DNA of 64,000 nucleotides from an uncultured Methanosarcinales archaeon (GCA_964354085.1 CAYGYA010000049.1:3887-67886), one strand, 5' to 3'. Positions 3,995 to 63,453 are shown, numbered from the stretch's first letter. The notes: generated by a model from the letters alone, not told the origin. A program made the numbers and translations.

Positions 3995-5029
3995 GTGATT
4001 GTTATGGATGCTTTTACACGAGGCAAACTAGGCATACTCGCCTGCGATTCTGGAGGGTTTTTTGCACAAAAAGTAGTTGAGGAACTAAATAAAATAATTG
4101 AAAAAGAAGAAGGCTCTGATGGCATTGAGCTTATCAAGACCAAAGAAACCAAGTTCAGCAACACTGAATTAAAAACAGAGATTGAGGAGAGCATCAGGAA
4201 CCAGGACGTATACATTTTTCAGGATGTTGCCAATCAGAATGCTGGCTTAAGTGTTAATGATAATTTCGTAGCCTTAAAAACAGCAATCAACGCAACCAAG
4301 ATGGCTGATGCGCATTACATCACAGCAGTAATACCTGTATTCCCTTATGCAAGGCAGGACAAGGCAAAGACCAGGGAAGGAGTAACAGCTGCCATGGCTG
4401 CAAGGGAACTAGAAGATGCTGGGGCAACGCGCGTAATAACCCTTGATGTTCACAACGAGGCAATTGCTGGCTTTTTCAGGAAAGCCATTCTTGAGAATCT
4501 TCGCGCTTCAAAGAATTTCATGGATTACATAAAAGAGAATATAGGGTTTAATGACCTTGTTATTGTTGCTCCTGATGCTGGCGGAGCTGCAAGAGCTATT
4601 TATTATGCAAAAAAACTAGGCATAAAGCTGGCCTTGCTTCACAAGGAAAGGGATTATTCCAAGGCTAATGTTGTTGAGAACACGCATCTTCTTGGGGATG
4701 TGAAAGGCAAGAAAGCCTTTATTATAGACGATATCCTGGACACAGCAGGCACTATTCTTAATTCCCTGAAAAAAATGAAAGAGCAAGGAGCAAAAGAGAT
4801 TTATGTAGCAGCAAGCCTGCCCTTGCTTACAGGCCCTGCGATTGAGAGGCTGAGCAATGCACACCAAGAAGGAACCCTGACAAGAGTAATAGGCACAGAT
4901 GCGGTTTATCACGGACAAGGATTTGCAAACAAATACCCTTGGTACGTTGAAGTAAGCGTAGCTAAGTATTTTGCAAGAGTCATCTATAACATCAACAGAG
5001 GGATATCAATAAGCAGGCTGCTGGAGTGA
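3995..5029 (+). CDS. prs: ribose-phosphate pyrophosphokinase (PRPP synthetase)
   Basis: PFPYARQDKAKTREGVTAAMAARELEDAGATRVITLDVH and the PRPP-binding loop FIIDDILDTAGT. Start may be the Met 3 codons downstream. Confidence 0.85.
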   Translation: MIVMDAFTRGKLGILACDSGGFFAQKVVEELNKIIEKEEGSDGIELIKTKETKFSNTELKTEIEESIRNQDVYIFQDVANQNAGLSVNDNFVALKTAINATKMADAHYITAVIPVFPYARQDKAKTREGVTAAMAARELEDAGATRVITLDVHNEAIAGFFRKAILENLRASKNFMDYIKENIGFNDLVIVAPDAGGAARAIYYAKKLGIKLALLHKERDYSKANVVENTHLLGDVKGKKAFIIDDILDTAGTILNSLKKMKEQGAKEIYVAASLPLLTGPAIERLSNAHQEGTLTRVIGTDAVYHGQGFANKYPWYVEVSVAKYFARVIYNINRGISISRLLE

Positions 5030-6528: not shown

Positions 6529-8097
6529 TTACTCCTCATCATATTTGCCAAGTGCCATCTGGCCTTTTCTTTTGCTTTTATTTACTTGAACTTTTTCTTC
6601 TCTTAAGTCTTCTCCTACTTGTTTCTTTATAGAGAGAGCAACTTGTTTTCCAACAAGTTGAGTTAGCAGTGGCAAATCTGCTTTCTTCACATCTTCAATA
6701 CCCTTAATCTTATTATTAAATAATTTTCTTGCCCTTATTCTTCCAATGTTTCTAAGCCTGAGCAATGGCAATAATTCTTCTTTTGCACCGTAAGTCAGCC
6801 TCATCCTGACTTTCTCAAACTCTTTTATTAACCCATGCAATTTTATAAGCTTGGATATTTCAACGCAGGAGTAGAGCAGCCAGTCTGCAAGGCTTAGCTT
6901 AACCCTGATCTCTCCTGGCCTGATATTGTATTTCTCAAGCAAGGCTTCTTCATCAACTTCATTAATCCAGTCATAGAAGAACAATGCAGTCTTTATGCTC
7001 TTTAGGTATTCCTCGTATTCTGGCTCAAACATGCTGGGCTCAAGGCTTAATATTGATGAACTGAACATATTATTTTTTTCCTCAATATCATCGTATTCGC
7101 TTACCTTGACATTTAGCAAAGGACGAAGCTCAAGAGTGTATGATACCATTTGCAGGAATGAGAAGTCCTTGAGTATTTTGCTCTCTGCCCTTCTCATGCA
7201 GGTAATCAGGTAATGAACAGTGTATGGGTCAAGGTAGAGTTGGCTTACTCTCTGGCCAAGCAAGGTTGCTTCCAGCTCAATATTCTTGTCATCTTCCTTG
7301 ATAGTAATCATCTCCCATTCCTGCAATAGCTTGAGAATCCTGGTGATTATTGCTTCTATTTCCTTGACATTGCCGAACTGGTGAGCATAAAAGGTTTTCT
7401 TGAAAAAATCCATTAAGCTCTTTTTTGAGCTGGCATAATCTGTTGCTATTAAGCTGAGAACATAAGTCCTTAGCACAGGCTCAACAGCTAGTTTGCTAAG
7501 AATCTCTTCTGGCTCTCCTTGGATATAAGTGCGGATTATCTTTTCTTTTTCTCCATTTGTTTCTGCAAGGCAGATTGCTTCTCCATATTCGTCATTAAAA
7601 TCAGGTCGTCCGGCGCGACCGCAGAACTGCAAGAATTCAAGAACAGGAATCCAAGCCATACCTCTTGGTGATGAAAACCTTTTCAAGTCACGGACTATAA
7701 CGCGAAATGCTGGTAAATTAACTCCGTAAGCTAAAGTCGGCGTCGCGCAAATTATCTTTATATTGCCATTTCTAAAATTATCCTCTATCAATTCCCTTTG
7801 CTGGGAGTGCAAGCCAGCGTGATGAAAAGCAACTCCTTTTTTTGCACATAAAGCAAGCCTCTGGCATTGTTTTGTAGATTTGTCAAGCACCCCGAGGATT
7901 TTTCCAGCCAATTCATCAAGAGCTTCCTTATCCTTGTCATCAACTTTTAATTTAACAGCAATGCGCTCAGCCTCTGCCTCTGCACCGCTCTTAGTATTGA
8001 CAAAAACCAAAGCCTGCTTTTTCTTCTCAAGAGTATCAAGGCAGATGTTAAGAACAGCATGCTCATACACGTGCTTTATCTTTGAGGTTTTTTGCAT
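6529..8097 (-). CDS. Ski2/Hel308-type helicase, C-terminal half only (RecA2 + winged helix + ratchet + HhH); N-terminal RecA1/Walker domain absent
   Basis: Starts directly at the RecA2 domain, with motif IV LVFVNTK, motif V TPTLAYGVNLPA and motif VI QFCGRAGRPDF. WH, Sec63-like ratchet helices and a C-terminal HhH region follow. An in-frame stop lies 4 codons upstream and a tRNA gene sits 24 nt upstream. Confidence 0.7.
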   Translation of the reverse strand: MQKTSKIKHVYEHAVLNICLDTLEKKKQALVFVNTKSGAEAEAERIAVKLKVDDKDKEALDELAGKILGVLDKSTKQCQRLALCAKKGVAFHHAGLHSQQRELIEDNFRNGNIKIICATPTLAYGVNLPAFRVIVRDLKRFSSPRGMAWIPVLEFLQFCGRAGRPDFNDEYGEAICLAETNGEKEKIIRTYIQGEPEEILSKLAVEPVLRTYVLSLIATDYASSKKSLMDFFKKTFYAHQFGNVKEIEAIITRILKLLQEWEMITIKEDDKNIELEATLLGQRVSQLYLDPYTVHYLITCMRRAESKILKDFSFLQMVSYTLELRPLLNVKVSEYDDIEEKNNMFSSSILSLEPSMFEPEYEEYLKSIKTALFFYDWINEVDEEALLEKYNIRPGEIRVKLSLADWLLYSCVEISKLIKLHGLIKEFEKVRMRLTYGAKEELLPLLRLRNIGRIRARKLFNNKIKGIEDVKKADLPLLTQLVGKQVALSIKKQVGEDLREEKVQVNKSKRKGQMALGKYDEE

Positions 8098-8120
8098 TAC
8101 GATACCTTCAGAATCATTAA

Positions 8121-8256
8121 TGGGCCCGCGGAGAGTTGAACTCCGGACCCCACGATATCTGTGCTGGCGTCCGCAGAAATCAGAGATTTCTGGGTTCTCG
8201 CGCTGATGCGCTTCGAATATCAGTCGTGTGCTCCAGCCAGGCTAAGCTACGGGCCC
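8121..8256 (-). tRNA. tRNA-Ile (anticodon GAU) with a ~61-nt intron at the canonical 37/38 position
   Basis: Hand fold of the reverse complement. Acceptor GGGCCCG/CGGGCCC, D-stem GCUU/GAGC, anticodon stem CACGA/UCGUG with loop CU-GAU-A, T-arm CGGAG-UUCAACU-CUCCG, discriminator A, no encoded CCA. Confidence 0.55.
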
Positions 8257-8267
8257 AATGATAAAAA

Positions 8268-8382
8268 CGCCTCCAGCCGGATTTGAACCGACGACCGCGC
8301 GGTTACTTTCCTTCTCTTACCCAGATATTTCTGAGCAAGGCGAAGCTAACAGCCGCGAGCTCCACCGCTAAGCTATGGAGGC
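8268..8382 (-). tRNA. tRNA-Asn (anticodon GUU) with a ~43-nt intron after position 37
   Basis: Hand fold. Acceptor GCCUCCA/UGGAGGC, D-stem GCUU/GAGC, anticodon stem CGCGG/CCGCG with loop CU-GUU-A, T-arm GUCGG-UUCAAAU-CCGGC, discriminator G. Confidence 0.5.
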
Positions 8383-8571
8383 ATTTCGTCTCTTCTTTCG
8401 AAGAATACACCTTTTTAAATAGTTTATGGTTAAGAGCAATCTTTGATTTGTAACCACTGTTTAATAGGAACAAAACGAAACATTTATATAGTAAGCTCAT
8501 CACATATAGAAGAAAGATATATATAGTTTAAAATCATAGGTTACGTGTTTTCCAAAAAGGGAGGGACAACC

Positions 8572-9213
8572 ATGGACACACCTGGAACGCCAGTTAAAAT
8601 ACCAAGATTAGAAGAGATAATAATAAATAATAAAAGAGTAAGAGACTTGATACAAAGTGTAGAACCAGAATACAGAGAATTCTTTGTAATCAACACCCAA
8701 TCAGTCATGCTTGAGAAAGGCTTACCCCTAGAAAGGTTTTCAGATGTACTATACCTAAGAAGGTGCGCTCCTGAGTTTGTTGACCAATTAATAGAAGCTG
8801 CTAACAAAGTAGAGTACAAAGCACAAAAGCTCAATCTGAAATTTGAAGAAGTGGTGTATGGTGCGCTCGAAAGGGCAGGAATAGAAAACTTAAAATACAG
8901 TCATGACTGCCCTAGCTATTGTTATCTCCTTACTGCTGTTGATGCTCTAGGAGGCATGGATTTTCAAAAGAACAGGGAATCTATACTTAGAGAAGCTAAA
9001 GCAGACAGATTTTCAGGTGACAGCGCTAAAAATCAAGAAATAATCAGACTGCGAGGGCTAAAAGTACTGGATAACTTGCTTTGCCCAGGAATAGGCATTG
9101 CAGAAGAACTAACCGCAAAAGCTATGAGTGAACCTCAAATGCCAAAACAGGATTATGCCAAGATGTTAGGACCTGGAAAAAAAGAATATCAGCCACTGCC
9201 AAAGAAATTGTGA
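8572..9213 (+). CDS. hypothetical protein
   Basis: 213 aa. Start chosen at the ATG preceded by GGGAGGG 7 nt upstream. No recognisable domain. Confidence 0.45.
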   Translation: MDTPGTPVKIPRLEEIIINNKRVRDLIQSVEPEYREFFVINTQSVMLEKGLPLERFSDVLYLRRCAPEFVDQLIEAANKVEYKAQKLNLKFEEVVYGALERAGIENLKYSHDCPSYCYLLTAVDALGGMDFQKNRESILREAKADRFSGDSAKNQEIIRLRGLKVLDNLLCPGIGIAEELTAKAMSEPQMPKQDYAKMLGPGKKEYQPLPKKL

Positions 9214-9226
9214 AACAGTAAAAAAA

Positions 9227-10630
9227 TCATTTCTTCTTAACCCTGACACCGTCAGCAGTATCTTCAAGAACAAAGCCTTTTGAGCTAATCTCATTCCTTA
9301 ACTTATCAGCAAGCTTGAAATCTTTTTTCTTCCTTGCTTCTTCTCTTTTGTCAACCAGCTCTTGAATCACTTTTGGAACTTCAATCTCTTCTTCTTTTAG
9401 CAAGTCCAAGCCAAACACCTTGTCAAACTTCTCAATCAGCTCAAGTTTTTCCTTGCTGCCAAGCTCAGAATCCTTAATCATGTCATTAAGAAGAGCAACT
9501 GCCTGAGGCATGTTCAAATCATCATTAATCCTTTTCAAGAATTCCTCATCATAATATTTTTTCTTAGCCTTCTTGTCAAGGCTCTTATTTTCTTTCTTAA
9601 GCATTGCAATCCTGTTCTTCAAAGTCTTATAAGCATTATTTGCTCCTTCAACAGCTTCCCAGCTAAAAGTAAGAGGCATTCGGTAATGGGCGCTAAAAGT
9701 AAAATACCTGAAAGCCAAAGGATTGATTCCTTTTTCTATCAGGTCAGCTACTCTTGTAAAGCTTCCCTTTGACTTTGACATCTTGCCCTCTGGGATTACC
9801 AGCCATTCTGCATGCAGCCAGTACTTCACCCAGGGCTTCTTGCCAGTTGCTGCTTCTGACTGGGCAATCTCATTAGTGTGATGAACCTGTATGTGCTCTT
9901 TTCCTCCGCAATGAATGTCAAACTGCTCTCCTAGGTATTTCATGCTCATTGCAGAACATTCAAGATGCCAGCCAGGAAATCCCTTGCCCCAGGGAGAATC
10001 CCATAGCATTATATGATTAGGCTGATTAGTAATCCAAAGAGCAAAATCACTAGAGTTTTTTCTTTCCTCATCTTTCTTGCCTCTTGCTCCTTCTTCCAAT
10101 TGCTCAAGCTTAAGCATTGCCATCTTTGCATAATCCTTGAATTTTGCAGTATCAAAGATTAACCCAACACTAGTATTGTAGGTGTAACCGTTCTTCTCAA
10201 TCTTCTTGACCAGCTCTATCATTTCAGGAACATGCTCAGTAGCCTTGCACCACACATCAGGCTGAAGAATATTTAACCTGATAAAATCATTCTTAAACTC
10301 GTCAAAATACATGTTAGCAAGCTTAACCATCGATTCCTTGGTCAAAGGCAAGCCTTCTCTTTTCAAAGCTTTCATGAGCTTGTCCTCACCTTCATCAGCA
10401 TCAGAAGTCAAATGGCCGACATCAGTGATATTAACCACATGCTTCACCTTGAAGCCATTCAATAGAAGAACTCTCTTAAGCACGTCCTCAAAAACATAAG
10501 TTCTCAGATTGCCAATATGCTGATACCAGTAAACAGTAGGGCCACAGCAATAAACACCCGTAAATCCAGGTTTGACAGGCTTGAACTCCTCTTTCTTCCT
10601 GCCCATAGTGTTAAAGAGCTTTAAACCCAT
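9227..10630 (-). CDS. cysS: cysteinyl-tRNA synthetase
   Basis: N-terminus [18 protein letters not shown] matches the CysRS N-terminus. HIGN motif ([11 protein letters not shown]), KMSKS motif ([10 protein letters not shown]), Zn-binding Cys residues. Confidence 0.9.
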
Positions 10631-51427: not shown

Positions 51428-52603
51428 CTAGTCCAAGAACTCCTGCTTTTTTATCTTTTCTGGCAGGTATTTTTCAGAAATAAAACTGATTCCTTTTGAT
51501 GACAATGCCTGGATTTCTACTTTTGCCCCAAAGTCTTTCATCATCTTGAACTGCCTCTGCCAAGCTTTGTGCTTCACAAACCATTCATAGTTCTGCATCT
51601 GCTTTAGCCTCGCGATGTCCTTATCTGTCAGCTTGATGAAGTGCCTTTTCAGGTCGTAGTTAACTACATCATCACAGGTTATTCCCAGGAACTTGACATC
51701 TGATATTGCCATCTCATCTGCCATGTGAGCCAAGCTTATGCTTCCAAATTTTAGTACAGAATAAATATACCATCCCCAGGGGTCGTTATCTGCAAGGACA
51801 TATATTGGCAGCTTATGCTCTGTGGAGAGCCTCTGGAGAAGCCTTCTGATTCCTCGCGTTGTCTGGCCTTGTGATGACATGATTATGCAGTTCTGCTTTG
51901 CCCAGAACTTGTCTTCGTGAAGACGTTCCCATACTGCTGCTTTCTCCATGTAAATAACGTATCTAGCTTCTACTTTCTTGAACTTGATATTCTCAACATT
52001 ACTGGGGATTGACCATCCTCCTGAACCTAGCTTTGACCAGTCTATTATGTCGCCAGAGTCTTCAACAACTACTTTGCCTGCGACGCTTCCCATCTTGTTG
52101 GCATTAACATTAAGGTTTTCTCTAGAATAGCCTGTTATCAGCTCCAAGTCTTCGATTGATTTGTCTGATTCTGTCTGTTCATCAACAACATTAATCTTGG
52201 TGTTAGGGATGGTTCTCTTTGCCATGTAGAATACGTCTCTCAGGCTTGCGTGCTTGGTAACATCAAGCAGGTTCTTGCATATGGAAGCAATCTCTATTGT
52301 TTGCAAAAATTTTTTTGAGTGCGCAACATTGAAGAAGAATCTCTGGGCTGTCTTGTCTCCTAGGCCAATGGTTTTTGATTCCTTGTCATAAACCACATTA
52401 CTTAATCCTCTCACAGAAAGTTCTATGTGAGGGTTTTTTCCCTTGTTAATATCGTCTATAATACCATAGCCTAGCTTGATGAGCTCTTTTTTTGCGTCAG
52501 CAGTGTTTGCAGCTTCTTTCCCGCTCAAGGATTCTTTCTTAGCTTCAGTCTTAGGTTCTTTCTTAGATTCTTTTTTTGCATCTTCTTCTTTTGCTTTTGG
52601 CAT
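51428..52603 (-). CDS. top6A: DNA topoisomerase VI subunit A (Spo11-like)
   Basis: Catalytic Tyr context LRDVFYMAK, TOPRIM ADNDPWGWYI, and a long Lys-rich N-terminal tail. Confidence 0.9.
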   Translation of the reverse strand: MPKAKEEDAKKESKKEPKTEAKKESLSGKEAANTADAKKELIKLGYGIIDDINKGKNPHIELSVRGLSNVVYDKESKTIGLGDKTAQRFFFNVAHSKKFLQTIEIASICKNLLDVTKHASLRDVFYMAKRTIPNTKINVVDEQTESDKSIEDLELITGYSRENLNVNANKMGSVAGKVVVEDSGDIIDWSKLGSGGWSIPSNVENIKFKKVEARYVIYMEKAAVWERLHEDKFWAKQNCIIMSSQGQTTRGIRRLLQRLSTEHKLPIYVLADNDPWGWYIYSVLKFGSISLAHMADEMAISDVKFLGITCDDVVNYDLKRHFIKLTDKDIARLKQMQNYEWFVKHKAWQRQFKMMKDFGAKVEIQALSSKGISFISEKYLPEKIKKQEFLD

Positions 52604-52640
52604 TTTATTTTTCTAACTCCTCATTATACTCTATTGTGCT

Positions 52641-54296
52641 CTATTCTTTCTCTGCTTTTTCAGAGCCATTATTCCCATTACCATTACCGTTATTGTTTTT
52701 CTCGTCTTCATCAACTTCTCCTTTTAATGACTCCATGTCCATGATTTCTTTTTGTATCTCTTCCTTCTTAATCATATCCTGTAGTTTCTTGAGAAGCTTT
52801 TCCTTGCTTTCTCCTGTTAGTCTTGAAAGAGAGTCTGCAACTTCAGGTATGTACCTTTCAAAAAGGTTGGCTCTATCGAGCTGATTCTTTACTTTGTGTT
52901 TCTTATGAACATAGGTCTGTAATCTTCTTCCTGCTTCCTGCAAAGCAAGCTTTACCTCGCTGATTATCTCCGGGTAATGAGCAATTGCTTCTTTTGATTC
53001 TGAAGTAAATGGCACCCATACGCTTGCTATGTGTACGGCAATTGTTACTGGCCCATTAGGCAGTGCGCCATTGCTCTGGTTCAGGCCATAAGGCTTCCAG
53101 TTAGTCTGGGTTACACTCTTGAAAATACTACAAGCTCCTTGCTGGTAAAGAAGAGGGACTCTGTTGGCAAACCTCAGGAGATTAATAGTTTGGTCAGTTG
53201 GCTGAGTGCCACCGTAGGCAATAGCTACTTCTACTTGAAAGGGATTGCCTCGATAAACAGCAGGGCTTCTGCTTACTGCGCAATAAAACTCTGCATTAAC
53301 TTCTTTTCTCAAGCCTTTTTCAAAAGCTTCTTCTCCAATTGGGCTTATGCAGTCTGTTGGTGGGCTGATGATTTTTGTGTTTTTGATTGCATTGATAAGC
53401 TTCTCTGCATCATCTCTTGTGATTTTCTTGGGCGAAGTGCTTGGCGGGACAAGGGCTTTCTCGCATATTTCTTTTGCAGTCCCTGGGCCTACTCGTGAGA
53501 ATTCGCTTGTCAGGAATGCCTGCAATGTCCTGTTGTCTGTGTTGCTCAGCATTTTTAGGAGTATGCCGAGCTCGATTCCATAGGGATGAGGCTTTATCTC
53601 AATGGGTTGCTTTGGCAACACCTGCGTTGCCCTAGGAAAAATTATCTGCTCTGCTTTTGGATTAACATAGGTAATGTTAACATGAGGATTAATTATTGCT
53701 GTCTGTTTCAGGTATTCGTCAACGCTCTGAGGGCCTTTTAGATAGCTTCCTTCCAAATCCAGCTCTACTCTTGTGCCCTGAGGCTTTTCCCATTCCTGCT
53801 CCTCATCCTTGAGAATTAGCGGTTTATTATTGGCAGTGTCAATTTTTAATTCATAGTAATGCGCAGGCTTATCAGGCGCTATTTTTGATATTATTTTTGC
53901 AGGCCTGCCTGTTGTGAGCTGAGCATACATGACGCTTGCGCTGATTCCTATTCCTTGCTGTCCTCTGCTCTGTTTAAGCCTGTGGAACTTGCTTCCGTAC
54001 AAGAGCTTTGCAAAAACCTTGGGTATCTGATTGGATACAATTCCAGGACCATTGTCCTCTATTACTGCCCTGAACCTGTCATTGCCCATGTCAACAAGCT
54101 CAATCATTATTTCTGGGAGTATGTCTGCTTCTTCACAAGCATCCAGAGAATTATCAACAGCTTCCTTAACTGCTGTGAGAAGAGCTTTTCTCTTATTATC
54201 AAAGCCAAGCAAGTGCCTATTCTTCTCAAAAAACTCAGCAATAGAGATTTCTCTCTGCTTTTTTGCCATTTCCTCTGCCTTGATTGCTTCAGCCAT
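52641..54296 (-). CDS. top6B: DNA topoisomerase VI subunit B (GHKL ATPase)
   Basis: Bergerat-fold motifs VKEAVDNSLDACEE, IEDNGPGI and GQQGIGISA, a transducer domain, and an acidic Asn/Gly-rich C-terminal tail. Lies immediately upstream of top6A. Confidence 0.9.
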   Translation of the reverse strand: MAEAIKAEEMAKKQREISIAEFFEKNRHLLGFDNKRKALLTAVKEAVDNSLDACEEADILPEIMIELVDMGNDRFRAVIEDNGPGIVSNQIPKVFAKLLYGSKFHRLKQSRGQQGIGISASVMYAQLTTGRPAKIISKIAPDKPAHYYELKIDTANNKPLILKDEEQEWEKPQGTRVELDLEGSYLKGPQSVDEYLKQTAIINPHVNITYVNPKAEQIIFPRATQVLPKQPIEIKPHPYGIELGILLKMLSNTDNRTLQAFLTSEFSRVGPGTAKEICEKALVPPSTSPKKITRDDAEKLINAIKNTKIISPPTDCISPIGEEAFEKGLRKEVNAEFYCAVSRSPAVYRGNPFQVEVAIAYGGTQPTDQTINLLRFANRVPLLYQQGACSIFKSVTQTNWKPYGLNQSNGALPNGPVTIAVHIASVWVPFTSESKEAIAHYPEIISEVKLALQEAGRRLQTYVHKKHKVKNQLDRANLFERYIPEVADSLSRLTGESKEKLLKKLQDMIKKEEIQKEIMDMESLKGEVDEDEKNNNGNGNGNNGSEKAEKE

Positions 54297-54410
54297 TTTA
54301 ATTAGAACTTTAAAAAGGTTATAAGTTATTTATAAACCTTTGCTTAATGCCTACAATTTTTTTTCAGATTATTAGGAAGTTATTTATATTAAATACGCTT
54401 CTTTTATGAC

Positions 54411-54854
54411 GTGATTCCAAACTTTTTTTCAAAAAAGGAAATGCCAAAGAACATACCTGAAGCTATGGAGAAAATAGTTAAAGAGCTAAAGAAGTCAGCA
54501 AGCAAACAAGCCTGTCTTAGAAAAGCTTATGAGCTGCTTGCCAAAAAATATTACGGGGACAGGTTAATGACTTACACTCATTTATTTGAACTATTTAATG
54601 CTGATCCTGTTGTTTTATGGGACAAAAGAGGTTATTTGCATTGCACACACATTAACTATTTGTTAAGAATACTCCTAGTTAAGAGTGGTTGTTTCAAGGA
54701 TGAAGATATAAAACTTAAATGGACTGTTATATGGTACCTCAGCCCTCACCAATACCTAGAAATAAGACTGAATGACCAGAAAACTGTGAATGTTGATGTC
54801 TGGGGAATTAAATATGGCATAAAATTTGGAGATTATGCTCACGGATTCCATTAA
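54411..54854 (+). CDS. hypothetical protein
   Basis: 147-aa ORF. No motif recognised. Confidence 0.35.
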   Translation: MIPNFFSKKEMPKNIPEAMEKIVKELKKSASKQACLRKAYELLAKKYYGDRLMTYTHLFELFNADPVVLWDKRGYLHCTHINYLLRILLVKSGCFKDEDIKLKWTVIWYLSPHQYLEIRLNDQKTVNVDVWGIKYGIKFGDYAHGFH

Positions 54855-54878
54855 AATATGTTGACCTGCAACAGTTTA

Positions 54879-55493
54879 TTACGACATTGGCGAGGCAATA
54901 TCTTTTTTGCCAGCAACCCTATGATATAATTTTTTAAATGAAGAATTGAGATAATCATTGATTCTCCTTGATACTGGATGCAATCCTGCCATTGCACTTA
55001 TCCAGCAGAGCCCGCCAAAAACCCACGAAGCAGACCTTCTTAAGCTCTCTGCCATTTCAGTATGTTCCTTGAGCATAAAGTTTGAGAATAGCATGGTTGT
55101 CTGGAAAACAGAAATGTCTGCAACATAATCAGCTGCAATAAATGTCCCAACAAATTTTCCAAATTCCTTGCTAAATATTTTCTTGTATTTTTCTTTGTTT
55201 CTTAGGTATTCAATGCCAAAAGCGGTACTATAACCGCATGCATATCCTATTACATAGCTGCCAGCAAGTGAAGCAAATTCACTAGTATACCCTAGTGCAT
55301 GAGCAGCCTTTGGTCCAATCGCTGCGCCGGCTGTAGAAGCAAAAAGAGGCACAACTAATCCTTTCATGTAATATTTCCAATTTGCAGGATAGTTTTTTAC
55401 TTGCGCTTTAAGTTCAGTCAGGAGCGTTGGTTTTTCAACTGGGTTTTCAACCCTCTGCTCTAATGATTTATCTAAAGAAGTCAGATCAGACAT
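54879..55493 (-). CDS. hypothetical (possibly membrane-associated) protein
   Basis: 204-aa ORF with a Gly/Ala-rich hydrophobic segment. Confidence 0.35.
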   Translation of the reverse strand: MSDLTSLDKSLEQRVENPVEKPTLLTELKAQVKNYPANWKYYMKGLVVPLFASTAGAAIGPKAAHALGYTSEFASLAGSYVIGYACGYSTAFGIEYLRNKEKYKKIFSKEFGKFVGTFIAADYVADISVFQTTMLFSNFMLKEHTEMAESLRRSASWVFGGLCWISAMAGLHPVSRRINDYLNSSFKKLYHRVAGKKDIASPMS

Positions 55494-56193
55494 TTATTCC
55501 ACACCCTTGAAGGCGTTTCTCAAGCTCTTTTCCAGAAGCTGCCACATAAAAATTGTGCGCTGGCCTTGAACTATCATTATGCTGTGCACGAATTGCTTCA
55601 GAAGGGTCAATGTATGGTGTGAAAAGTATTCCTGCCCATCCAAACTGCTCAATCCCTGTTCTCAGATAGCTTTCCTTGTCATCAATAAAGAGGACCCTAT
55701 TGTATCCTTTAATCTGCTGATAGATTTCAGGTTGTGGTTTTACTGAACCAACTTGAAATGAGTAAATAGCAGGCATTGAATTATCATAGAGGTTGAGAAC
55801 ATCAGGCCATTGCCTGTTTATAGTATCCAGTGCAAAAGCACTCATGTTAGACAACAATCCCACTGAATAACCTGCCCGGTATGCCCTGAATTTCAAATCA
55901 ATCATTTCTCTTATTTCTCCGGGCCAGTTGAGTTTAATTAGTCCCATTATCTGTTCCTTAGGGATAGGAGTATTTGGTGATATGAGGTTTGCTACGCCAG
56001 ATAAATTCTCTTCAACTGATATTTTTCCGAGCAGCGCGTCAATTTCAATGTTACTTTCACTATACACCTTGGCAAACTCATCTGTAGTGCATCCTCTTAT
56101 TTGTGCTGCTTTCTCATAAAAGCTTTTATAGTCCAGCTTCACAAGAACAGCGCCAACATCAAATAGAACAAGGGTCTTTCTCATTCCTTTCAT
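55486..56193 (-). CDS. HAD-like hydrolase
   Basis: N-terminal LVLFDVGAVLV (motif I-like) and C-terminal VLFIDDKESY (motif IV-like D[D]). Confidence 0.5.
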   Translation of the reverse strand: MKGMRKTLVLFDVGAVLVKLDYKSFYEKAAQIRGCTTDEFAKVYSESNIEIDALLGKISVEENLSGVANLISPNTPIPKEQIMGLIKLNWPGEIREMIDLKFRAYRAGYSVGLLSNMSAFALDTINRQWPDVLNLYDNSMPAIYSFQVGSVKPQPEIYQQIKGYNRVLFIDDKESYLRTGIEQFGWAGILFTPYIDPSEAIRAQHNDSSRPAHNFYVAASGKELEKRLQGCGINV

Positions 56194-57226
56194 AATTCAT
56201 TCCAACTCGCTGGGTTAAAATCTGGCTTGCATGCATATATTTCTCCAGTGCTCATGTAATGAGCTATAAGAGCGCCAGCACACTGGTGCAGTATTGCTCC
56301 TGTGTTTGCTGGGGTTGTCTTTTCAATATGATCAGGGTCTGCTTTTGACTTATCAAACAGTTTGGCTTTGATTACTCTGCATACAGAATTGAAATCGTCA
56401 CGATAAGCAAGCAGTTCTCTGTGTTCCTTGTAATCTATAGCAGTATTCCAACGATTAAGAACATCATTAAATGACTTGTTTGTCCTGATTCTGGTAACAT
56501 AATGAGGATTGCCTTCTATCATTCCCCCTGAGAGCTTGCCTATCAGCTCTGCAGAAATCACATCTTCTTTTGTCAGGCCAACTTCCTCAACAAGCTCAGC
56601 ATCAAGCGACTCAAAAATTGGGTCTTTGCCAGTATGGTATTCTATTGAGCCTGCTGGGACAGACATTATTGTATCAGCAAAATTATATCCTCCTCTCAAT
56701 CCCAGAACAATAAAATCATCTGCTGTAATCAGGACGTTGCTTATGGATATTGCCTTTAGGGGAGACGTTTTGATTTTTCCTCGCCTAAGAAGCTGGGTCG
56801 CGTATGAATGCGCTGTTGTTGCTTCCAGGGTAAGCATGCCTTTTTCATACTTGTCACCTGAAATATGAAGCAGCAAGTCATTCCACCATGGCAGGAATAT
56901 TGCGTCCTCGCTTTGAGCCTCTGCTGGTATTCCAGCCAGGTTCATTAAATCATGAAAGTGTTTTTTCCATTCTTCCTGAGATTTTATTGCCTGCCTTAAT
57001 TCTTCAACCTTGACCTTATCCAGGGCTATAGGAGGAATTTCAGCTATGCCTAGTTTAGCTCTTGTTGCTTTTACTAGGTCTTCAATGCTGCCAGATATTT
57101 CCTTGTTTTCTCTTAGATTATCTCTTCTCTTAGATTATCTCCCTTTTGCAGATAATTGTATTTAATGCCTTGCCCTGGCTTAAGTGCCGGCAGATATACA
57201 TATTCAATATTAAGTAAAGTATCCAT
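56190..57226 (-). pseudogene. gene (~340 aa, unknown function) interrupted by a frameshift created by a perfect 17-nt tandem duplication
   Basis: The Met at 57226 opens a frame that stops in the second copy of ttctcttagattatctc (57108-57124, 57125-57141). Deleting one 17-nt copy restores a continuous frame into ORF 56190..56945, reading MDTLL...QKGDNLREENKEISGSIEDLVKATRAKLGIAEIPP...HDLMNLAGIPAEAQ.... Confidence 0.5.
57108..57141. repeat. perfect 2 x 17-nt tandem duplication (ttctcttagattatctc)
   Basis: Exact direct repeat read from the sequence. Confidence 0.9.
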
Positions 57227-57327
57227 TTAAGTTATTATAGGGGGAGAGGTTTATAAATGTTTCGTTTTTTTATCACCAAGAAGTGAGAACATTATAAAGG
57301 GTGTGTTTGTGGCTAAAAAAGCATAAT

Positions 57328-58035
57328 CTAGGTGATAAATCCATTATCCTTCAGGAACTTGAAGCCCAGCTTTCTTAATTCCTTCAGCTCCCAAAGCGTG
57401 TGAGCATCGCTGTTAACATACACCTGATCTGCTTTTGATAGCATCAGCTTTATTGCTTCCAGATGCTTGGCTGAGTTATCAGCGTATTTCGCAGGATTAT
57501 CACCAATTAAAAGGTATTTGCAGTTCAGCTCCAATGGTATCTTGTATTTATTAGCTAGCTCCACTATCTTGGCAATATCAAGTTCTGTTCCCTCGAGAAA
57601 AGACAAGTGCAAGTGGCCTATCATCTTGATAATATCATGATGCCTTTCAATTGCATTAATAAATGCTTGCGTCAACTTTTTTTTATCCCCCTTATAAACA
57701 TTCTTGTGATGTGATAGTATGTTAAAATCTGCATTCTTATTCTGGATATGGTCGCATATGCCTCCTTTCTCATTCATCAGGTCTGCTTCAACTCCAAAAA
57801 TCACTTCCACTTTGTTAATAACGTTTTGCCATCTACCAGCTTTAATAATTGTCCTGAAAGTCTTTTTTGGAATGCCTTCTGCATCAAGAGCGGCCTAGGA
57901 ATGGTCTGCAAAAACAAGCTTTTTCATGCCAATTTCGCCGGCATACCTAACCATCTCGTCAATAGTGTTAAATCCATCTGAGAAATTTAACGAATGCACA
58001 TGATAATCTTCTTTTTCAGTATTCAGAATTTTCAT
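57328..58035 (-). pseudogene. PHP-family (histidinol-phosphatase-like) phosphoesterase with an in-frame TAG at 57895..57897
   Basis: The minus-strand frame from the Met at 58035 reads MKILNTEKEDYHVHSLNFSDG...KKLVFADHS*AALDAEG... and continues in the same frame into ORF 57328..57810 (…DAHTLWELKELRKLG). YHVHS is the PHP HxH. Confidence 0.5.
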
Positions 58036-58059
58036 TTTAGCACGTTACCTCTTTCATCC

Positions 58060-58698
58060 TCAGAATCCATGCTGTTCTCTCTTGTCTTTTCTTCTCCGGT
58101 CTTCAAGCCATTTGAAAACAGTTGAGTGCATGCTTCCCTTGATTAAGAACTCAATTGCCCTCTTTGCACTGGTTACTCCGCTGCACTCTCCAATAATGCC
58201 TATGGTCTTGCCATAGACGCACACTTCAGTGCCTGTGAGCTCTTCAACCACTCGCCTTGCTTTGCCTCCTGTTCCTATCACTCTTGCTTTAACCCTTGCG
58301 AGCTTGTTAGGCTTGTCAAGGCCATAATCCTTGAGATTGATTATTTCAAGCATATAATCAGGCTTTAATAGCAGGCTAGCAGTCTCTGGGCTAAATCCTC
58401 TTGCAATTGCCTGGATGATCTCCCTGAGCTCAAAAAGCTTCAAGGCATCCTTGCCAGTAATAACAACATCTCCCTCAGTAGAATCAACATCAATCTTTGA
58501 GCCAGACCAATCTTCCAAGTCATGCTTGTCCTTGCCCTTGACACCTATGAGAACAGCAATCCTGTCCCTGGGTATTTTGATAGTGTGAGAATAATCAGAG
58601 CCTTCAGCCAAATAATTATTAGTGTACTCAGTCTCTTCAGTCTCTTCTGGCTCAGAACTTGCTTCAACTGATTCTTCCTGCTTCTTTTTTCTTGGCAT
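58060..58698 (-). CDS. KH-domain RNA-binding protein (Dim2/Pno1-like)
   Basis: Acidic N-terminal tail, then two KH modules (IKIPRDRIAVLIGVKGK and RVIGTGGKARRVVEELTG, each with a GxxG loop). Adjacent to the RIO kinase as in archaeal ribosome-biogenesis clusters. Confidence 0.65.
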   Translation of the reverse strand: MPRKKKQEESVEASSEPEETEETEYTNNYLAEGSDYSHTIKIPRDRIAVLIGVKGKDKHDLEDWSGSKIDVDSTEGDVVITGKDALKLFELREIIQAIARGFSPETASLLLKPDYMLEIINLKDYGLDKPNKLARVKARVIGTGGKARRVVEELTGTEVCVYGKTIGIIGECSGVTSAKRAIEFLIKGSMHSTVFKWLEDRRRKDKREQHGF

Positions 58699-58847
58699 AA
58701 ATGAGCGGAGACAGATTTTTTTTATAAATGTTTGCCAAATGATAAGTTTTCATAACTTTGTCGTGTCAACGGTTCTTTTTAAATGAATGCAATTCACTGG
58801 GCCGGTACAAGAAATTTTTATAAACATCAACAACATCCTGTTCTTGC

Positions 58848-59258
58848 ATGGAACTCACAAAACCAATGATTATAAAGAGAAATGAGACCAACAAAATAGC
58901 AACTTCCAGCGGAGAATTCCTTGAATATATTAGCTGGAAGCAATGCAAAGAACTGGCAGTTGGCATTGGCGTGCATAATTCTAGGTTTCCAAAACAAGGA
59001 TTCCTTGTAAATAATAAAGTGAGTGAGATGATTTGGCTATTAAAAGGAGCAGGCAGCATTGTAGTTAAGCAAGGAACAAAGGAGCAGAAGCTGCCCCTAG
59101 AAAAAGATGCCTTGGTTTTCATTCCAAAGAAAACACCTTTTTATTTTGAGCCAGAGCCTTCAATGGAGATTCTGTCAGCAACAGGACCTGCATGGTATCC
59201 TAAGCAACAAAAAGGCTTGGATTACAGAAGAAAAGAGTCTGGAAGGATGATTCTTTGA
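58848..59258 (+). CDS. hypothetical protein (possible cupin-like small barrel)
   Basis: 136 aa. Weak cupin-like pattern (GSIVVKQG...LVFIPKKTPFYFE). Confidence 0.3.
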   Translation: MELTKPMIIKRNETNKIATSSGEFLEYISWKQCKELAVGIGVHNSRFPKQGFLVNNKVSEMIWLLKGAGSIVVKQGTKEQKLPLEKDALVFIPKKTPFYFEPEPSMEILSATGPAWYPKQQKGLDYRRKESGRMIL

Positions 59259-59293
59259 TTAAATTTATTAAGACAATCAAATAACTTCTAATA

Positions 59294-59866
59294 ATGAAAT
59301 TAATCTTGACAAGGCACGGAGAGACTATTGAAAACAAGCTTGGCATCTGCCAAGGCCATCTCCCAGGCAGCCTCTCTGGGGAAGGGCTTGCTCAGGCAAA
59401 AAAAGTTGCTCTTAGACTAAAAGATGAGAAAATCGATATAATCTATTCCAGTGACCTTGAGCGCGCAGCTGCGACTGCCAGGGAAATCATGAGATACCAT
59501 CCAGATACTCCTGCTTATTTTGTTCCTCAGTTGAGAGAAAGGGATTTTGGCAGCTATTCTGGCAAGAAATCTGATGAGCTAGACTGGAAACATACTCCGC
59601 CAGATGTGGAAACTCTGGAACAACTAAGAAAAAGAGCTGCTCTTTTCCTAGATAAACTTTATCAGTCTCATAGCCAACAGAATGTACTCTGCGTAGCTCA
59701 CGCTGGAATAAACAAAGAGTTCATAGCAGTCATCATGGACAAGCCAGCTGATTATGTTCGAGAGCTAGAGCAGCAGCACAACACTGCAATCAACATCTTT
59801 GACATAGGTGAAAATGGCAACCACAAGATTCATTTATTGAATTGCAAGAAACATCTTGAAGAATAA
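59294..59866 (+). CDS. histidine phosphatase family protein (phosphoglycerate-mutase-like)
   Basis: N-terminal LILTRHGET (RHG catalytic His), second His region CVAHAG. 190 aa. Confidence 0.7.
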   Translation: MKLILTRHGETIENKLGICQGHLPGSLSGEGLAQAKKVALRLKDEKIDIIYSSDLERAAATAREIMRYHPDTPAYFVPQLRERDFGSYSGKKSDELDWKHTPPDVETLEQLRKRAALFLDKLYQSHSQQNVLCVAHAGINKEFIAVIMDKPADYVRELEQQHNTAINIFDIGENGNHKIHLLNCKKHLEE

Positions 59867-60571
59867 TCATTTCTTCAAAATCTCATCAAGAACTTCTTTT
59901 TCATCAGCTTTTACTCCGAGCCTCTTGAAGAATTTGACAATATTATGTATGTCTCTTTCCATGAACTCTCTTGCCTGGGGGTGCTGGGTTGTTGTTGCCT
60001 GGCTCAGGTCAATAAAAACAGGCTCTTCCTCAAAGTTGAGTATGTTGAATTCTGACAAATCAGCATGGACAATGCCAACATCATACAATGCCTTGATGCT
60101 CTTAATTGTTCTCTTAAAGAAATCCTTGGGATTCTTGGGCTTTTCATTCTTTAGCATTGGAGCAAGCTCATTATCCCTGCCAATGAACTCCATGACCAGG
60201 ATGTTGTCTTTCACAGTTATTGGCTTTGGCACACGGATAACTTCCCGTGCTTTGAGCAGATTACGATATTCTCTCTGAACCCAGGAAAATATTACCAAGC
60301 GCCTTCTCTTTTTCAAGCCAGCAAACCTAGGGTCAGGAGCAATATACCTGTACATCTGGTTAAAGTTGCAGTTCTCAAGTCGATAAACCTTGACAATGAC
60401 TGTGTCCTCGCCTTTGCTCGCAGTGAATATGTTAGCTTCCTTGCCAAGGGCTATTGGGCTTTGCAATTCATCAAAGTGGCCTTCGCTCCTGAGCTTCTCA
60501 AGATTCAGGAGAGCTAGCTGGTCAAATACGTTCTTGTAAGTCTTCCATTCTTCACGTGATTCTCTTGGCAT
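59867..60571 (-). CDS. rio: RIO-type serine/threonine protein kinase
   Basis: Glycine-rich loop LGKEANIF, catalytic loop IVHADLSEFNIL, metal-binding D in IDLSQA. 234 aa. Confidence 0.85.
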   Translation of the reverse strand: MPRESREEWKTYKNVFDQLALLNLEKLRSEGHFDELQSPIALGKEANIFTASKGEDTVIVKVYRLENCNFNQMYRYIAPDPRFAGLKKRRRLVIFSWVQREYRNLLKAREVIRVPKPITVKDNILVMEFIGRDNELAPMLKNEKPKNPKDFFKRTIKSIKALYDVGIVHADLSEFNILNFEEEPVFIDLSQATTTQHPQAREFMERDIHNIVKFFKRLGVKADEKEVLDEILKK

Positions 60572-60610: not shown

Positions 60611-62026
60611 TTAGAAACGATTATTTCTATCGTGAAAATCACCAGGCCTAAAACCTCTGTATTTTCTCTCATCATATATGTCAAATCTTTCTCCTAGCGC
60701 GTCAACTCCAAAACCTAATCCTGCGCCTGCTGCAGCTCCTGCAAGGCTCCATAAGACTACCATGTACCATTTTGAGGGATGAACATCAAATCCTCCTTTG
60801 AAGTTCTTTGAATAAGCTTTCTGTGTCTCTGATATTATCTGCCTTTTCAGGCTTCTTGCACTTGTGCTTCCTTTTTTTCCATTCAAGGTTACATCAATGT
60901 ATTCAACAATTTTCTGATGAAGTTTTGGTGCAAATGTCTTTACATAATCAATTCCTTCCTTGATCTGGGATATGCTTTGTTCTAAGGTTCTCCCATCATC
61001 AAGAGTTTTTTCTGCAGCCTGGAATTCAATAGGGCCAGAATCAGAGCGTGAAAAAGTAATGTAAGAAGTGCTGTGGGCTCTTGTTTTTGCCTTGTTCCAT
61101 AATGGGGAATCGCTGTTCAAAGCATACATCATTTCAGTAATCCTAGGCATATTTGTATTAACTGTTGAGCCACTTGCCCATGTTCCAGCATATTTAGTTA
61201 GCTCTTCTGGTGCAAGCCTTTTTCCTTTTAGCTTTTTTTCCCTGCTTTTTTCTATTGCAGATTCATTATCTGCATGGGTTACTGGCGAAACAATGAATTT
61301 TTCTTTTAGCTCTAAGCGGGGATGCTTGGCTAATAGGTCATCCAATGATATTGATGCAGCTTCTCCTGATTTCTTATCATAGCTGTATGAATGGATTGTA
61401 TAATCATACACATATTCTGATTCAGTATGAGTGTTTCCGTCTGAGTCAGTTTCTGTATGTGTTTCCCAGTGGCCAACATCCACGTGGCTATCATTCCACG
61501 CAGAGTCAAAATGATTATTCACTTGCTTTATCCTGCCAAGCACTTCAAGGAAATCCTTTAGTTTTATAAGTGCAGTATCAGCTTGATTAGGAAGGGCTTT
61601 TGTGAAGTCTGTAATCTCATAGTGATGGATTCTCATTGATGGGTCAATCCTGTTCTCAAGCTCTCTTGCAAACGAAGCTGTGTTGCTTCCAAACAAAGAA
61701 AACTGGTTTGATATGTTCCAGCTCTCAAAAACCTTCATAGCTAAATCATTGGTGCTTGCATAGTATCTTGTCAGGGTAGGCACTTCTGTTTTTTGCTTTT
61801 CTGCCTCTTTTTCTATCTGTGATATTTCAGAAAATGCTACAGGTATTATTTTTCCCTTTGTATTCTCAAAATGCAAGCTGAGCGGCAATGCAACTAAGAG
61901 TCCAATTCCTGCACCTATACCAATCTCTGCCGGGGTATCCCTTAGAAAACCTTTGAATCCCCCCCAATAGTCGCTAATTTTCTCTTTCAGTTCGAGTTTT
62001 AGCTTATCTAAATCCATTTTAAGCAC
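60611..62026 (-). CDS. hypothetical protein with N- and C-terminal transmembrane segments
   Basis: 471 aa. N-terminal TM (IGIGAGIGLLVALPL) and C-terminal TM (YMVVLWSLAGAAAGAGLGFGV) flank a large soluble domain. Confidence 0.4.
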   Translation of the reverse strand: MLKMDLDKLKLELKEKISDYWGGFKGFLRDTPAEIGIGAGIGLLVALPLSLHFENTKGKIIPVAFSEISQIEKEAEKQKTEVPTLTRYYASTNDLAMKVFESWNISNQFSLFGSNTASFARELENRIDPSMRIHHYEITDFTKALPNQADTALIKLKDFLEVLGRIKQVNNHFDSAWNDSHVDVGHWETHTETDSDGNTHTESEYVYDYTIHSYSYDKKSGEAASISLDDLLAKHPRLELKEKFIVSPVTHADNESAIEKSREKKLKGKRLAPEELTKYAGTWASGSTVNTNMPRITEMMYALNSDSPLWNKAKTRAHSTSYITFSRSDSGPIEFQAAEKTLDDGRTLEQSISQIKEGIDYVKTFAPKLHQKIVEYIDVTLNGKKGSTSARSLKRQIISETQKAYSKNFKGGFDVHPSKWYMVVLWSLAGAAAGAGLGFGVDALGERFDIYDERKYRGFRPGDFHDRNNRF

Positions 62027-62151: not shown

Positions 62152-63453
62152 TTACAAGTCATCGCTTATCAATACGTTGACTCTGCCTTGGCTCTTGATT
62201 TTTGTGTCCATGGCCACTAGGAAGCTTACATTTGCTCTTTCTGCTACCATGAGCAAGTCCTTATCTATGATTCCGTCAAGAACAATTGTGTATATTCCTG
62301 ATCTCAGGCTCTTGATTGTGCCTTGGAGCTCTGACAATGGGACTTTTCCGAGAATATTGAGCTTCTCATCAAGCAGGTAAGCTCCTCTTGTTCCTATTAA
62401 GTCTTCGAGCATTTCCTCAAAAACTTCTTTCTCATGAGGTGTTGCCTCTTTTGGCTTGCCTACAGGTGCTTGTGGCGACTGTATTGGAGGCCTTGGCTGT
62501 TGTTGCTGCATTGGAGGCCTCCTGTCTCCTCCTCGGTCTCCGCGGTTGTCCCTGAAGTCTCTTACAGGAGCTTGCTGAGGAGCTCTTCTCTCTTCGATCC
62601 TTTCTCCTCTTCCTCCTTCTGTGGTAACATCTGTTTTTGCCTGCTCAAATGCAACTCTTGCCCTTAGTGCCTTGTGTATTTCTTTCTTGGTCAGCTCTTC
62701 TACTTCTTTGCCATCAGGTGCTTTGGTCACAAAGTCTATCTCTGCAACTCCTCCGAGCTCTTTGAGTATTAAGTCTCCTCCTCGGTCTCCGTCAACAAAT
62801 GCTGTCAAGGTCTTTTTCTTGCTCAATTCTATAATTGTTTCTGGGACACTGGTGCCGTTCATTGCAATCACGTTCTTGAAGCCTTGCTTTAATAGGTTGA
62901 GAACATCTGCTCTTCCTTCAACAACAATAACTTCGTCGCTCTCATCTACTGAAGGTCCTGCTGGCAACCTGTCCTTGCCATATTCCTGAATTTCCATAAC
63001 CCTGACTGCATATGATACTTCATCTGCCAGTTCCTGGCTGTCAGGCATTACTGACTCTATCAGTTCTTTCAAGAGCTCTTTTGCCCTGTCAATAACAAAC
63101 TGCCTCTTGGAAACTCTTACATCCTCAATATTAGCTACTTTTATCTTTGCATTGCAAGGTCCTATCCTCTGGATTACTTCAAGGCTTGCAGCTACTATGC
63201 ATGTCTCTGATTTATCTAAAGAACTAGGAACAATAATCACACCTGCTGATTTTCCGCTCTTAGTGTCAATATTAACTTCTATTCTTCCTATTCTTCCGCT
63301 TCTCTGAAGTTCTCTTAGCTCCAAATCCGCTCCTAAAAGCCCTTCTGTCTGGCCAAATATTGCGCCTATCACATCAGGCCTGTCTACTACTCCTTCAATC
63401 TGTATCTCAGCATGAACAATATATTTTGCTGATACTTGTGCTATCTTTGCCAT
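62152..63453 (-). CDS. dnaG: archaeal DnaG-type primase (TOPRIM) with RG/Q-rich low-complexity insertion
   Basis: TOPRIM core VIVVEGRADVLNLLKQGFKNVIAMNGT and FVDGDRGGD, and an archaeal DnaG N-terminal region. A ~60-aa insertion is rich in R, G, Q and P (RGERIEERRAPQQAPVRDFRDNRGDRGGDRRPPMQQQQPRPPIQSPQAPV). Confidence 0.85.
   Translation of the reverse strand: MAKIAQVSAKYIVHAEIQIEGVVDRPDVIGAIFGQTEGLLGADLELRELQRSGRIGRIEVNIDTKSGKSAGVIIVPSSLDKSETCIVAASLEVIQRIGPCNAKIKVANIEDVRVSKRQFVIDRAKELLKELIESVMPDSQELADEVSYAVRVMEIQEYGKDRLPAGPSVDESDEVIVVEGRADVLNLLKQGFKNVIAMNGTSVPETIIELSKKKTLTAFVDGDRGGDLILKELGGVAEIDFVTKAPDGKEVEELTKKEIHKALRARVAFEQAKTDVTTEGGRGERIEERRAPQQAPVRDFRDNRGDRGGDRRPPMQQQQPRPPIQSPQAPVGKPKEATPHEKEVFEEMLEDLIGTRGAYLLDEKLNILGKVPLSELQGTIKSLRSGIYTIVLDGIIDKDLLMVAERANVSFLVAMDTKIKSQGRVNVLISDDL

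Follow-up and report, generated by a model that had tools for sequence, protein, structure and literature searches.

The helicase Hel308 belongs to the core machinery that repairs replication forks in archaea and corresponds to human HELQ and to the helicase domain of Pol-theta. The characterised enzymes are single chains of about 700 aa, and archaeal Hel308/Hjm (2zj2, 2p6r, 2va8) belongs to the Ski2-like SF2 helicases; its activity, 3′-5′ DNA translocation at stalled forks, is presumed for the enzyme described here as well. Proteins encoded by two separate genes are already known from the DPANN archaea. The halves of the N. equitans DNA polymerase are joined by a split intein. Other split genes in N. 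equitans and Nst1 include those for reverse gyrase, the Lhr-type "large helicase-related protein" NEQ003/NEQ409, Glu-tRNA amidotransferase and others, and Woesearchaeota, Pacearchaeota and other DPANN have a split Dph1/2 (PMC3655853, PMC6349945). A split Hel308 is absent from the published split-gene lists that we compared (PMC3655853, PMC6349945), and we found no description of it in the full-text literature searched, outside which most subscription-journal papers lie.

The ORF at positions 6529..8097 (minus strand) of the 64-kb stretch of DNA analysed here, which we call the window, is very probably a functional gene for the C-terminal subunit of a two-gene, unlinked Hel308/Hjm of the Woesearchaeota (order Woesearchaeales, DPANN), with the gene for the RecA1 part, of about 220 aa, lying outside the window. 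The ORF, whose stop codon is at 6529-6531 on the same strand, encodes 522 aa, and its best match among solved structures was P. furiosus Hjm (2zj2, E 1e-87), with residues 18-498 aligned to chain residues 229-703 of 720. The identity to archaeal Hel308/Hjm is 35-37% over about 480 residues, and domains 2-5 come in the same order, namely, RecA2, winged helix (domain 3), ratchet (domain 4), and helix-hairpin-helix (HhH, domain 5), in an alignment that is continuous to Hjm residue 703. All of these features are encoded on the minus strand. The RecA2 core (7603..7875, aa 75-165) was recognized by Pfam Helicase_C with an E value of 1.6e-12 and contains HHAGL (aa 92-96), motif V TPTLA (aa 119-123), and the arginine finger of motif VI, GRAGR (aa 160-164, nt 7606-7620). 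The ratchet domain (6787..7161, aa 313-437) gave a strong match to Helicase_dom4_arc (PF21280; 104.9 bits, E 3e-30). The winged-helix domain (7303..7560, aa 180-265) scored 23.8 bits with HTH_61, slightly below the cut-off of 24.3 bits, and lies within the span aligned to Hjm, while the match of domain 5 (6619..6768, aa 444-493) to HHH_5 was weak (E 0.037); this region aligns to Hjm domain 5, and HHH_5 is significant in the relatives. An AlphaFold model of the C-half built with 48 homologues (pLDDT 84) had Hjm/Hel308 structures as the top solved folds, and its structured part opens with a helix at residues 14-24.

The preliminary description of this locus had proposed a Hel308/Ski2-type helicase without its RecA1 half, in which motifs IV-VI, winged helix, ratchet and HhH are present, and both points are borne out, the two weaker Pfam scores being those given above. 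Pfam detected neither a DEAD/RecA1 domain nor an intein domain in the ORF, which also lacks the Walker A and DExH motifs. No ORF of the window contains a Walker A and DExH pair, and when the N-terminal 232 residues of five full-length relatives were run against the window by tblastn, no frame gave a RecA1-like match (best E 0.21). The frame upstream of the ATG contains no start codon and has no helicase similarity. The in-frame stop closest to the ATG is TAG at 8244..8242, which lies 48 codons upstream, inside a tRNA-Ile gene, and not 4 codons upstream as had been stated.

To the extent that the databases cover it, the RecA1-less form is the rule among the close relatives of this protein. The best 120 homologues of the C-half (54-100% identity) are 490-578 aa long, 110 of them 510-529 aa, and have Helicase_C and domain 4; a DEAD domain was found in none of the 120, and those that carry a name are labelled Woesearchaeota or Nanoarchaeota. 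In a scan of one genome per GTDB species, the 80 loci reported of 221 that matched all have the RecA1-less form; the query was a chimeric alignment of the C-part and the N-half in which both peptide patterns came from the C-part, so that only C-half loci were reported. Complete orthologous ORFs from the fetched loci (n = 81) measured 485-596 aa with a median of 519, all without RecA1, and each of the 81 has an in-frame stop 0-49 codons ahead of its first start codon. Full-length relatives were sought exhaustively among the 50%-identity representatives. The closest of them (P0132, P0134 and P0135, 726-730 aa) are 46-48% identical to the C-half, and the match begins at about their residue 230. 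By neighbour joining, the split C-halves group as a single clade, to which the full-length P0132 is sister. The gene of P0132 is on a 3.7-kb contig, and its context is uninformative.

The selection acting on the C-half gene is strongly purifying, with dN/dS values of 0.076, 0.051 and 0.080 against orthologues at 92, 84 and 81% identity, respectively. The arginine finger of motif VI is present in all 120 database homologues and all 81 locus ORFs. The relaxed selection that a pseudogene would show was thus not seen, and neither were the narrow occurrence and the remnants of a lost part that would mark a truncated gene. We therefore regard the RecA1-less Hel308 as an old, conserved arrangement and not as a broken gene.

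When a profile built from five full-length N-termini was used as the query, hundreds of separate proteins with a DEAD domain alone were found, most of them 219-227 aa long. They consist of a DEAD/ResIII domain only, are 57-65% identical to the N-terminus of P0132, and are named Woesearchaeota or Nanoarchaeota. They rank below a few contig-end fragments, and a second search gave about a hundred further members. Of the 216 listed, 208 are 210-245 aa long and retain Walker A, DExH and SAT intact without exception. The genes are complete and lie well inside contigs, the longest of 857 kb, among unrelated neighbours. A typical member of 220 aa (P0359) aligns to Hjm residues 9-216, through its final residue. 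The N-half carries RecA1 (motifs I-III), a conserved WRPV segment and a terminal beta-hairpin, and its AlphaFold model (pLDDT 89) shows the RecA fold, the WRPV segment and the hairpin in this order. We take this hairpin to be part of the RecA2 sheet in Hel308 structures, and here it would tether the two chains. In scans of IMG/VR viral sequences, the N-half found only distant giant-virus helicases and the C-half found nothing.

The two families cover single-chain Hjm without gap or spare sequence. Residue 18 of the C-half corresponds to Hjm 229, which places residue 1 near Hjm 212, and the N-half ends at Hjm 216; the sum of 220 and 522 aa is close to the 714-730 aa of the full-length relatives. 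The chain is cut about 15-20 residues past the WRPV segment. The ORF had been said to begin precisely at RecA2, but the cut is displaced from the RecA1/RecA2 border, since the N-half family reaches Hjm residue 216 with the WRPV segment and the terminal beta-hairpin. In this way, domain 1 and motifs I-III of archaeal Hel308/Hjm are covered by the separate family of about 220 aa.

On the basis of these features, we infer that the two halves assemble and act together. The C-half and N-half polypeptides would be translated independently and would most likely associate without a covalent bond, and the ratchet and winged helix of the C-half, together with the C-terminal hairpin of the N-half, would hold RecA1 against RecA2. 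The ATP site would be rebuilt between one chain's Walker A and DExH motifs and the arginine finger of its partner, which would restore 3′-5′ translocation on DNA. Against activity in two chains, the isolated RecA domains of some SF2 helicases, such as eIF4A, fail to reconstitute in trans.

As one of two alternatives, the partner had been suggested to lie elsewhere in the genome, as with the split genes of Nanoarchaeota-like genomes, and a search for a RecA1 ORF of about 250 aa had been proposed. At the level of the lineage this reading is strongly supported: the C-half is conserved and under purifying selection, and a RecA1 family of about 220 aa exists in Woesearchaeota assemblies of the same taxon. 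For this genome the partner was not found, and the 64-kb window contains none, although the genome presumably holds a RecA1 gene of this family. The fetched surroundings (6-10 kb) of 91 C-half loci contained no N-half, 28 N-half loci had no C-half next to them, and no degraded remnant of either partner was seen at E ≤ 1 around these loci. No contig was common to both halves among the 216 N-half entries and the approximately 200 C-half database entries plus 80 GTDB loci, and the fetched N-half and C-half loci showed no overlap by blastn. The two families agree in their taxon names and in the sequencing projects that yielded them, with no common contig or assembly found, and the nearest pair of NCBI accession numbers between N-half and C-half entries is about 119,000 apart. 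The GC content of the fetched N-half loci is 31-38% or 51%, compared with 39-44% in the clade of the window, to which none of these loci belongs. Two candidates for the N-half of this clade were rejected: P0326, which was picked by amino-acid composition, sits in DNA of 51% GC and belongs to the wrong clade, and P0337 is from a tiny clade for which no contig matched.

Compared with the known split genes, the Hel308 split resembles those of N. equitans and Nst1 in that a housekeeping protein of a genome-reduced DPANN archaeon is encoded by two distant genes, with assembly after translation (PMC3655853). However, the latter concern Lhr and reverse gyrase in hyperthermophilic Nanoarchaeales and are known from one or two genomes, whereas Hel308 is split in mesophilic Woesearchaeales at one site in hundreds of genomes. 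The split Dph1/2 is a precedent for a lineage-wide split in Woesearchaeota, but it concerns an unrelated radical-SAM-type enzyme and not a helicase cut through its ATP site. The "fractured" genes with split inteins, such as that of the N. equitans DNA polymerase, likewise yield one protein from two distant genes, while the Hel308 split has no intein at the junction. Split genes in DPANN are therefore already known, and the split Hel308 adds an order-wide, single-site case, notable for its breadth, for the cut through the ATPase cleft and for its link to tRNA-Ile.

Upstream of the C-half gene, and on the same minus strand, the window contains two tRNA genes with introns. The nearer one is tRNA-Ile(GAU) at 8121-8256, with a 62-nt intron after position 37 (Rfam tRNA, 45.5 bits; ARAGORN -i, c[8120,8257]), and the other is tRNA-Asn(GUU) at 8268-8382, with a 44-nt intron (Rfam, ARAGORN -i), which is followed by a run of five T at 8267-8263. 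The ARAGORN defaults missed both; the whole-window Rfam gathering scan found tRNA-Asn and missed tRNA-Ile. An intron-bearing tRNA-Ile beside the ORF had been noted before, and this stands, but the tRNA does not begin 24 nt away; it is its 3′ end that lies 23 nt from the ATG, with both genes on the minus strand. This spacer (8098..8120) contains the SD-like GAAGGT at 8109..8104. A TATA-like TTTAAAAA at 8412..8419, 30-37 nt upstream of tRNA-Asn, can be read from the sequence as a candidate promoter.

Of 83 C-half loci, 71 have a TATA box (consensus CTTTATAAA) at −28 to −32 from the ATG, with a mode of −29, implying a leaderless, independently transcribed C-half mRNA in most lineages. The window and its 92% relative (L106) have no TATA box; the tRNA-Ile 3′ end is at −23 or −22, and an SD-like GAAGGT or TGGTGA precedes the ATG by 7-8 nt. 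Since the spacer of the window is only 23 nt and tRNA-Ile occupies the TATA position, there is no room for a TATA box at −29. Considering this and the SD-like motif, the C-half gene of the window is probably co-transcribed with the two tRNAs by read-through from the candidate TTTAAAAA promoter.

The adjacency to tRNA-Ile extends well beyond the window. Of the 91 loci, 13 have tRNA-Ile(GAU) 22-374 nt ahead of the C-half start; they represent at least six lineages, the earliest-branching among them, and the tRNA occurs in either orientation. Four lineages have it on the same strand, mostly with tRNA-Asn before it (the window with L106-109; L074, L090 and L092; and L082), whereas it is on the opposite strand in L051, L060, L081, L089 and L093. 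By contrast, none of 80 full-length Hel308 genes from metagenomes has this neighbour. A tRNA-Ile gene is presumably present in one or a few copies per genome, and chance adjacency to one particular tRNA gene would then be negligible; we therefore interpret the adjacency as inherited synteny specific to the split clade, which may mark the original breakpoint.

This leads to a possible, though doubtful, origin that is compatible with a two-subunit Hel308, namely, that the ancient split was produced by a rearrangement or deletion that had one of its ends next to tRNA-Ile(GAU), and not by an in-place mutation creating a stop and a start, followed by dispersal. The distribution of tRNA-Ile just described argues for it, but some downstream neighbours do not. 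A PRPP synthetase gene (opposite strand) comes after the C-half in the clade of the window and, in the largest clade, lies past FtsY and prefoldin downstream of the N-half; a topoisomerase I gene is found after the C-half in L044 and after the N-half in L002. Downstream neighbours common to both halves fit an in-place fission at one ancestral locus with later separation. Nor was a lineage with adjacent halves found among the 91 C-half and 28 N-half loci.

It is improbable that the split, instead of being an accident tolerated during genome reduction, is a working switch between independently transcribed subunits, in which the C-half alone would provide ATP-independent DNA binding and annealing, both halves together would form a translocating helicase, and the old tRNA-Ile(GAU) link would tie C-half expression to tRNA transcription. 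Slightly more improbable is the proposal that the C-half acts by itself, without an ATPase, as a DNA-binding or strand-annealing factor, while the RecA1-only protein is unrelated or has an occasional role, with assembly being conditional or regulatory. The annealing activity of Hel308/HELQ has been tied to motif IVa of RecA2 and domain 5 (PMC13623763), and the two genes are unlinked and have different promoters and neighbours, which would permit separate regulation. However, the arginine finger of motif VI, which is meaningful only when it faces an ATP bound to RecA1, is kept in 201 of 201 C-halves, the ATPase motifs are intact in 208 of 208 N-halves, and the narrow lengths of both families tile the full-length protein.

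The possibility that a full-length gene was recently cut at this site by a tRNA-targeted integration or a rearrangement, leaving a decaying 3′ fragment, was raised in the preliminary description and is very unlikely. In its favour, the tRNA-Ile gene ends 23 nt before the ATG, and the upstream frame enters this gene. The synteny with relatives, which had been suggested as a check, speaks against it: clade members that are 81-85% identical share both the start codon and the lack of RecA1, with an M3 peptidase gene upstream and no adjoining tRNA. The tRNA adjacency is thus not the scar of a recent truncation. In addition, the form occurs in at least 80 GTDB genomes, dN/dS is 0.05-0.08, and no RecA1 remnants are found upstream at E ≤ 1. 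The claim is accordingly refuted as a recent local event, while a weaker form of it, an ancient breakpoint beside tRNA-Ile, may stand on the recurrence of this tRNA in at least six lineages of split genes and in 0 of 80 full-length ones.

It is extremely unlikely that the halves become one molecule after expression, be it through a split intein or through trans-splicing of RNA by the tRNA-intron endonuclease. Such joining has a precedent in the DNA polymerase of N. equitans, LAGLIDADG inteins are present in the RecA2 of three relatives (P0121, P0123 and P0125), and the C-half gene adjoins intron-bearing tRNAs. However, these inteins are inside RecA2 and not at the split site, and there are no residues at the junction for intein fragments, of which one would take about 100 aa and the other about 35 aa; with no spare residues, there is no room for a split intein. 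Moreover, the N-halves end in stop codons, and in most C-half genes the TATA box precedes the ATG by 29 nt, so that the mRNA has no 5′ leader available for pairing with a second RNA. An assembly or sequencing error, by which a frameshift or mis-join upstream of position 8097 would hide the N-terminal third, has nothing but the abrupt start of the ORF in its favour and is just as hard to credit, given that five independent assemblies (Logan, ENA) at 92% identity all contain tRNA-Asn, tRNA-Ile and the ATG in this arrangement, that no frame of the window holds RecA1-like sequence, and that no RecA1 remnant lies upstream of 8097 from which correction of a local error could yield a full-length helicase.

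The two-gene Hel308 has consequences for how the enzyme is counted. Current annotation gives the halves unrelated names: one is called a "DEAD/DEAH box helicase", the other a "helicase-related protein" or a "hypothetical protein". The enzyme of Woesearchaeota will be missed by surveys that exclude "partial" helicases or score Hel308 by length, and partial sequences were left out of a 2024 survey of archaeal Ski2-like helicases. A two-chain Hel308 would also be a natural experiment on whether an SF2 motor needs the covalent linkage between RecA1 and RecA2 and on the part that the accessory domains play in holding the motor together. Finally, a split of Hel308 throughout an order bears on the question of whether the gene splits of DPANN are ancient or are by-products of genome reduction.

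A recurrent arrangement, seen in four lineages (L096, L099, and L191-L199; L002; L103), places an opposite-strand FtsY/SRP54-family gene after the gene for the N-half, the stand-alone RecA1 protein that complements the RecA1-less helicase part (C-half). In the largest clade, prefoldin and then PRPP synthetase lie beyond the FtsY/SRP54-family gene, and PRPP synthetase is also the convergent neighbor of the C-half gene in the clade of the window, where it lies at 3995-5029 of the window. The window carries a cluster of Topo VI-A, Topo VI-B, a KH protein, and RIO1 kinase (51431-60571) that is syntenic with L007, a locus of another lineage in which the N-half adjoins RIO1. No N-half is located beside RIO1 in the window (59867-60571, minus strand), where a His_Phos gene (59294-59866, plus strand) abuts RIO1 with zero spacer. 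An ORF of unknown function (60611-62026, minus strand), 471 aa long and predicted to have a membrane segment at either end, separates RIO1 from the DnaG-like Toprim gene at 62152-63453.

In relatives, an M3-family peptidase gene is present between CysRS and the helicase gene, whereas the window instead contains two tRNA genes and a 222-aa ORF without a Pfam match (8545-9213, plus strand); near-identical relatives have a called ORF of 182 aa in the same slot and on the same strand. Both tRNA genes are interrupted at the canonical 37/38 site, tRNA-Ile (8121-8256) by a 62-nt intron and tRNA-Asn (8268-8382) by one of 44 nt. In L106, the 92%-identical relative (tRNA genes at 9575-9979), the tRNA-Asn intron is 65 nt long and tRNA-Ile has a second intron of approximately 31 nt in the D-loop. 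These differences therefore indicate rapid turnover of tRNA intron content among close relatives. These intron-bearing genes escape ARAGORN at default settings.

Some RecA1-less C-half homologues (P0121, P0123, and P0125) reach approximately 1000 aa because a LAGLIDADG intein sits inside RecA2. The insertion points vary among several positions, and the inteins are insertions in a gene that was already split.

Many GTDB records with a Woesearchaeota-type C-half, from binchicken bins (L016, L017, L019, and others), are titled "uncultured Methanosarcinales archaeon," and one (L094) bears the name "Candidatus Binatia bacterium." The bins behind these titles seem to be either mislabelled or contaminated.

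A promoter-like element, (A/C)AA(C/T)CTTTATAAA, is strongly conserved in the upstream regions of L016-L095; in 71 of 83 loci it precedes the start codon of the C-half by approximately 29 nt. This spacing implies that C-half transcripts would be leaderless across Woesearchaeota.
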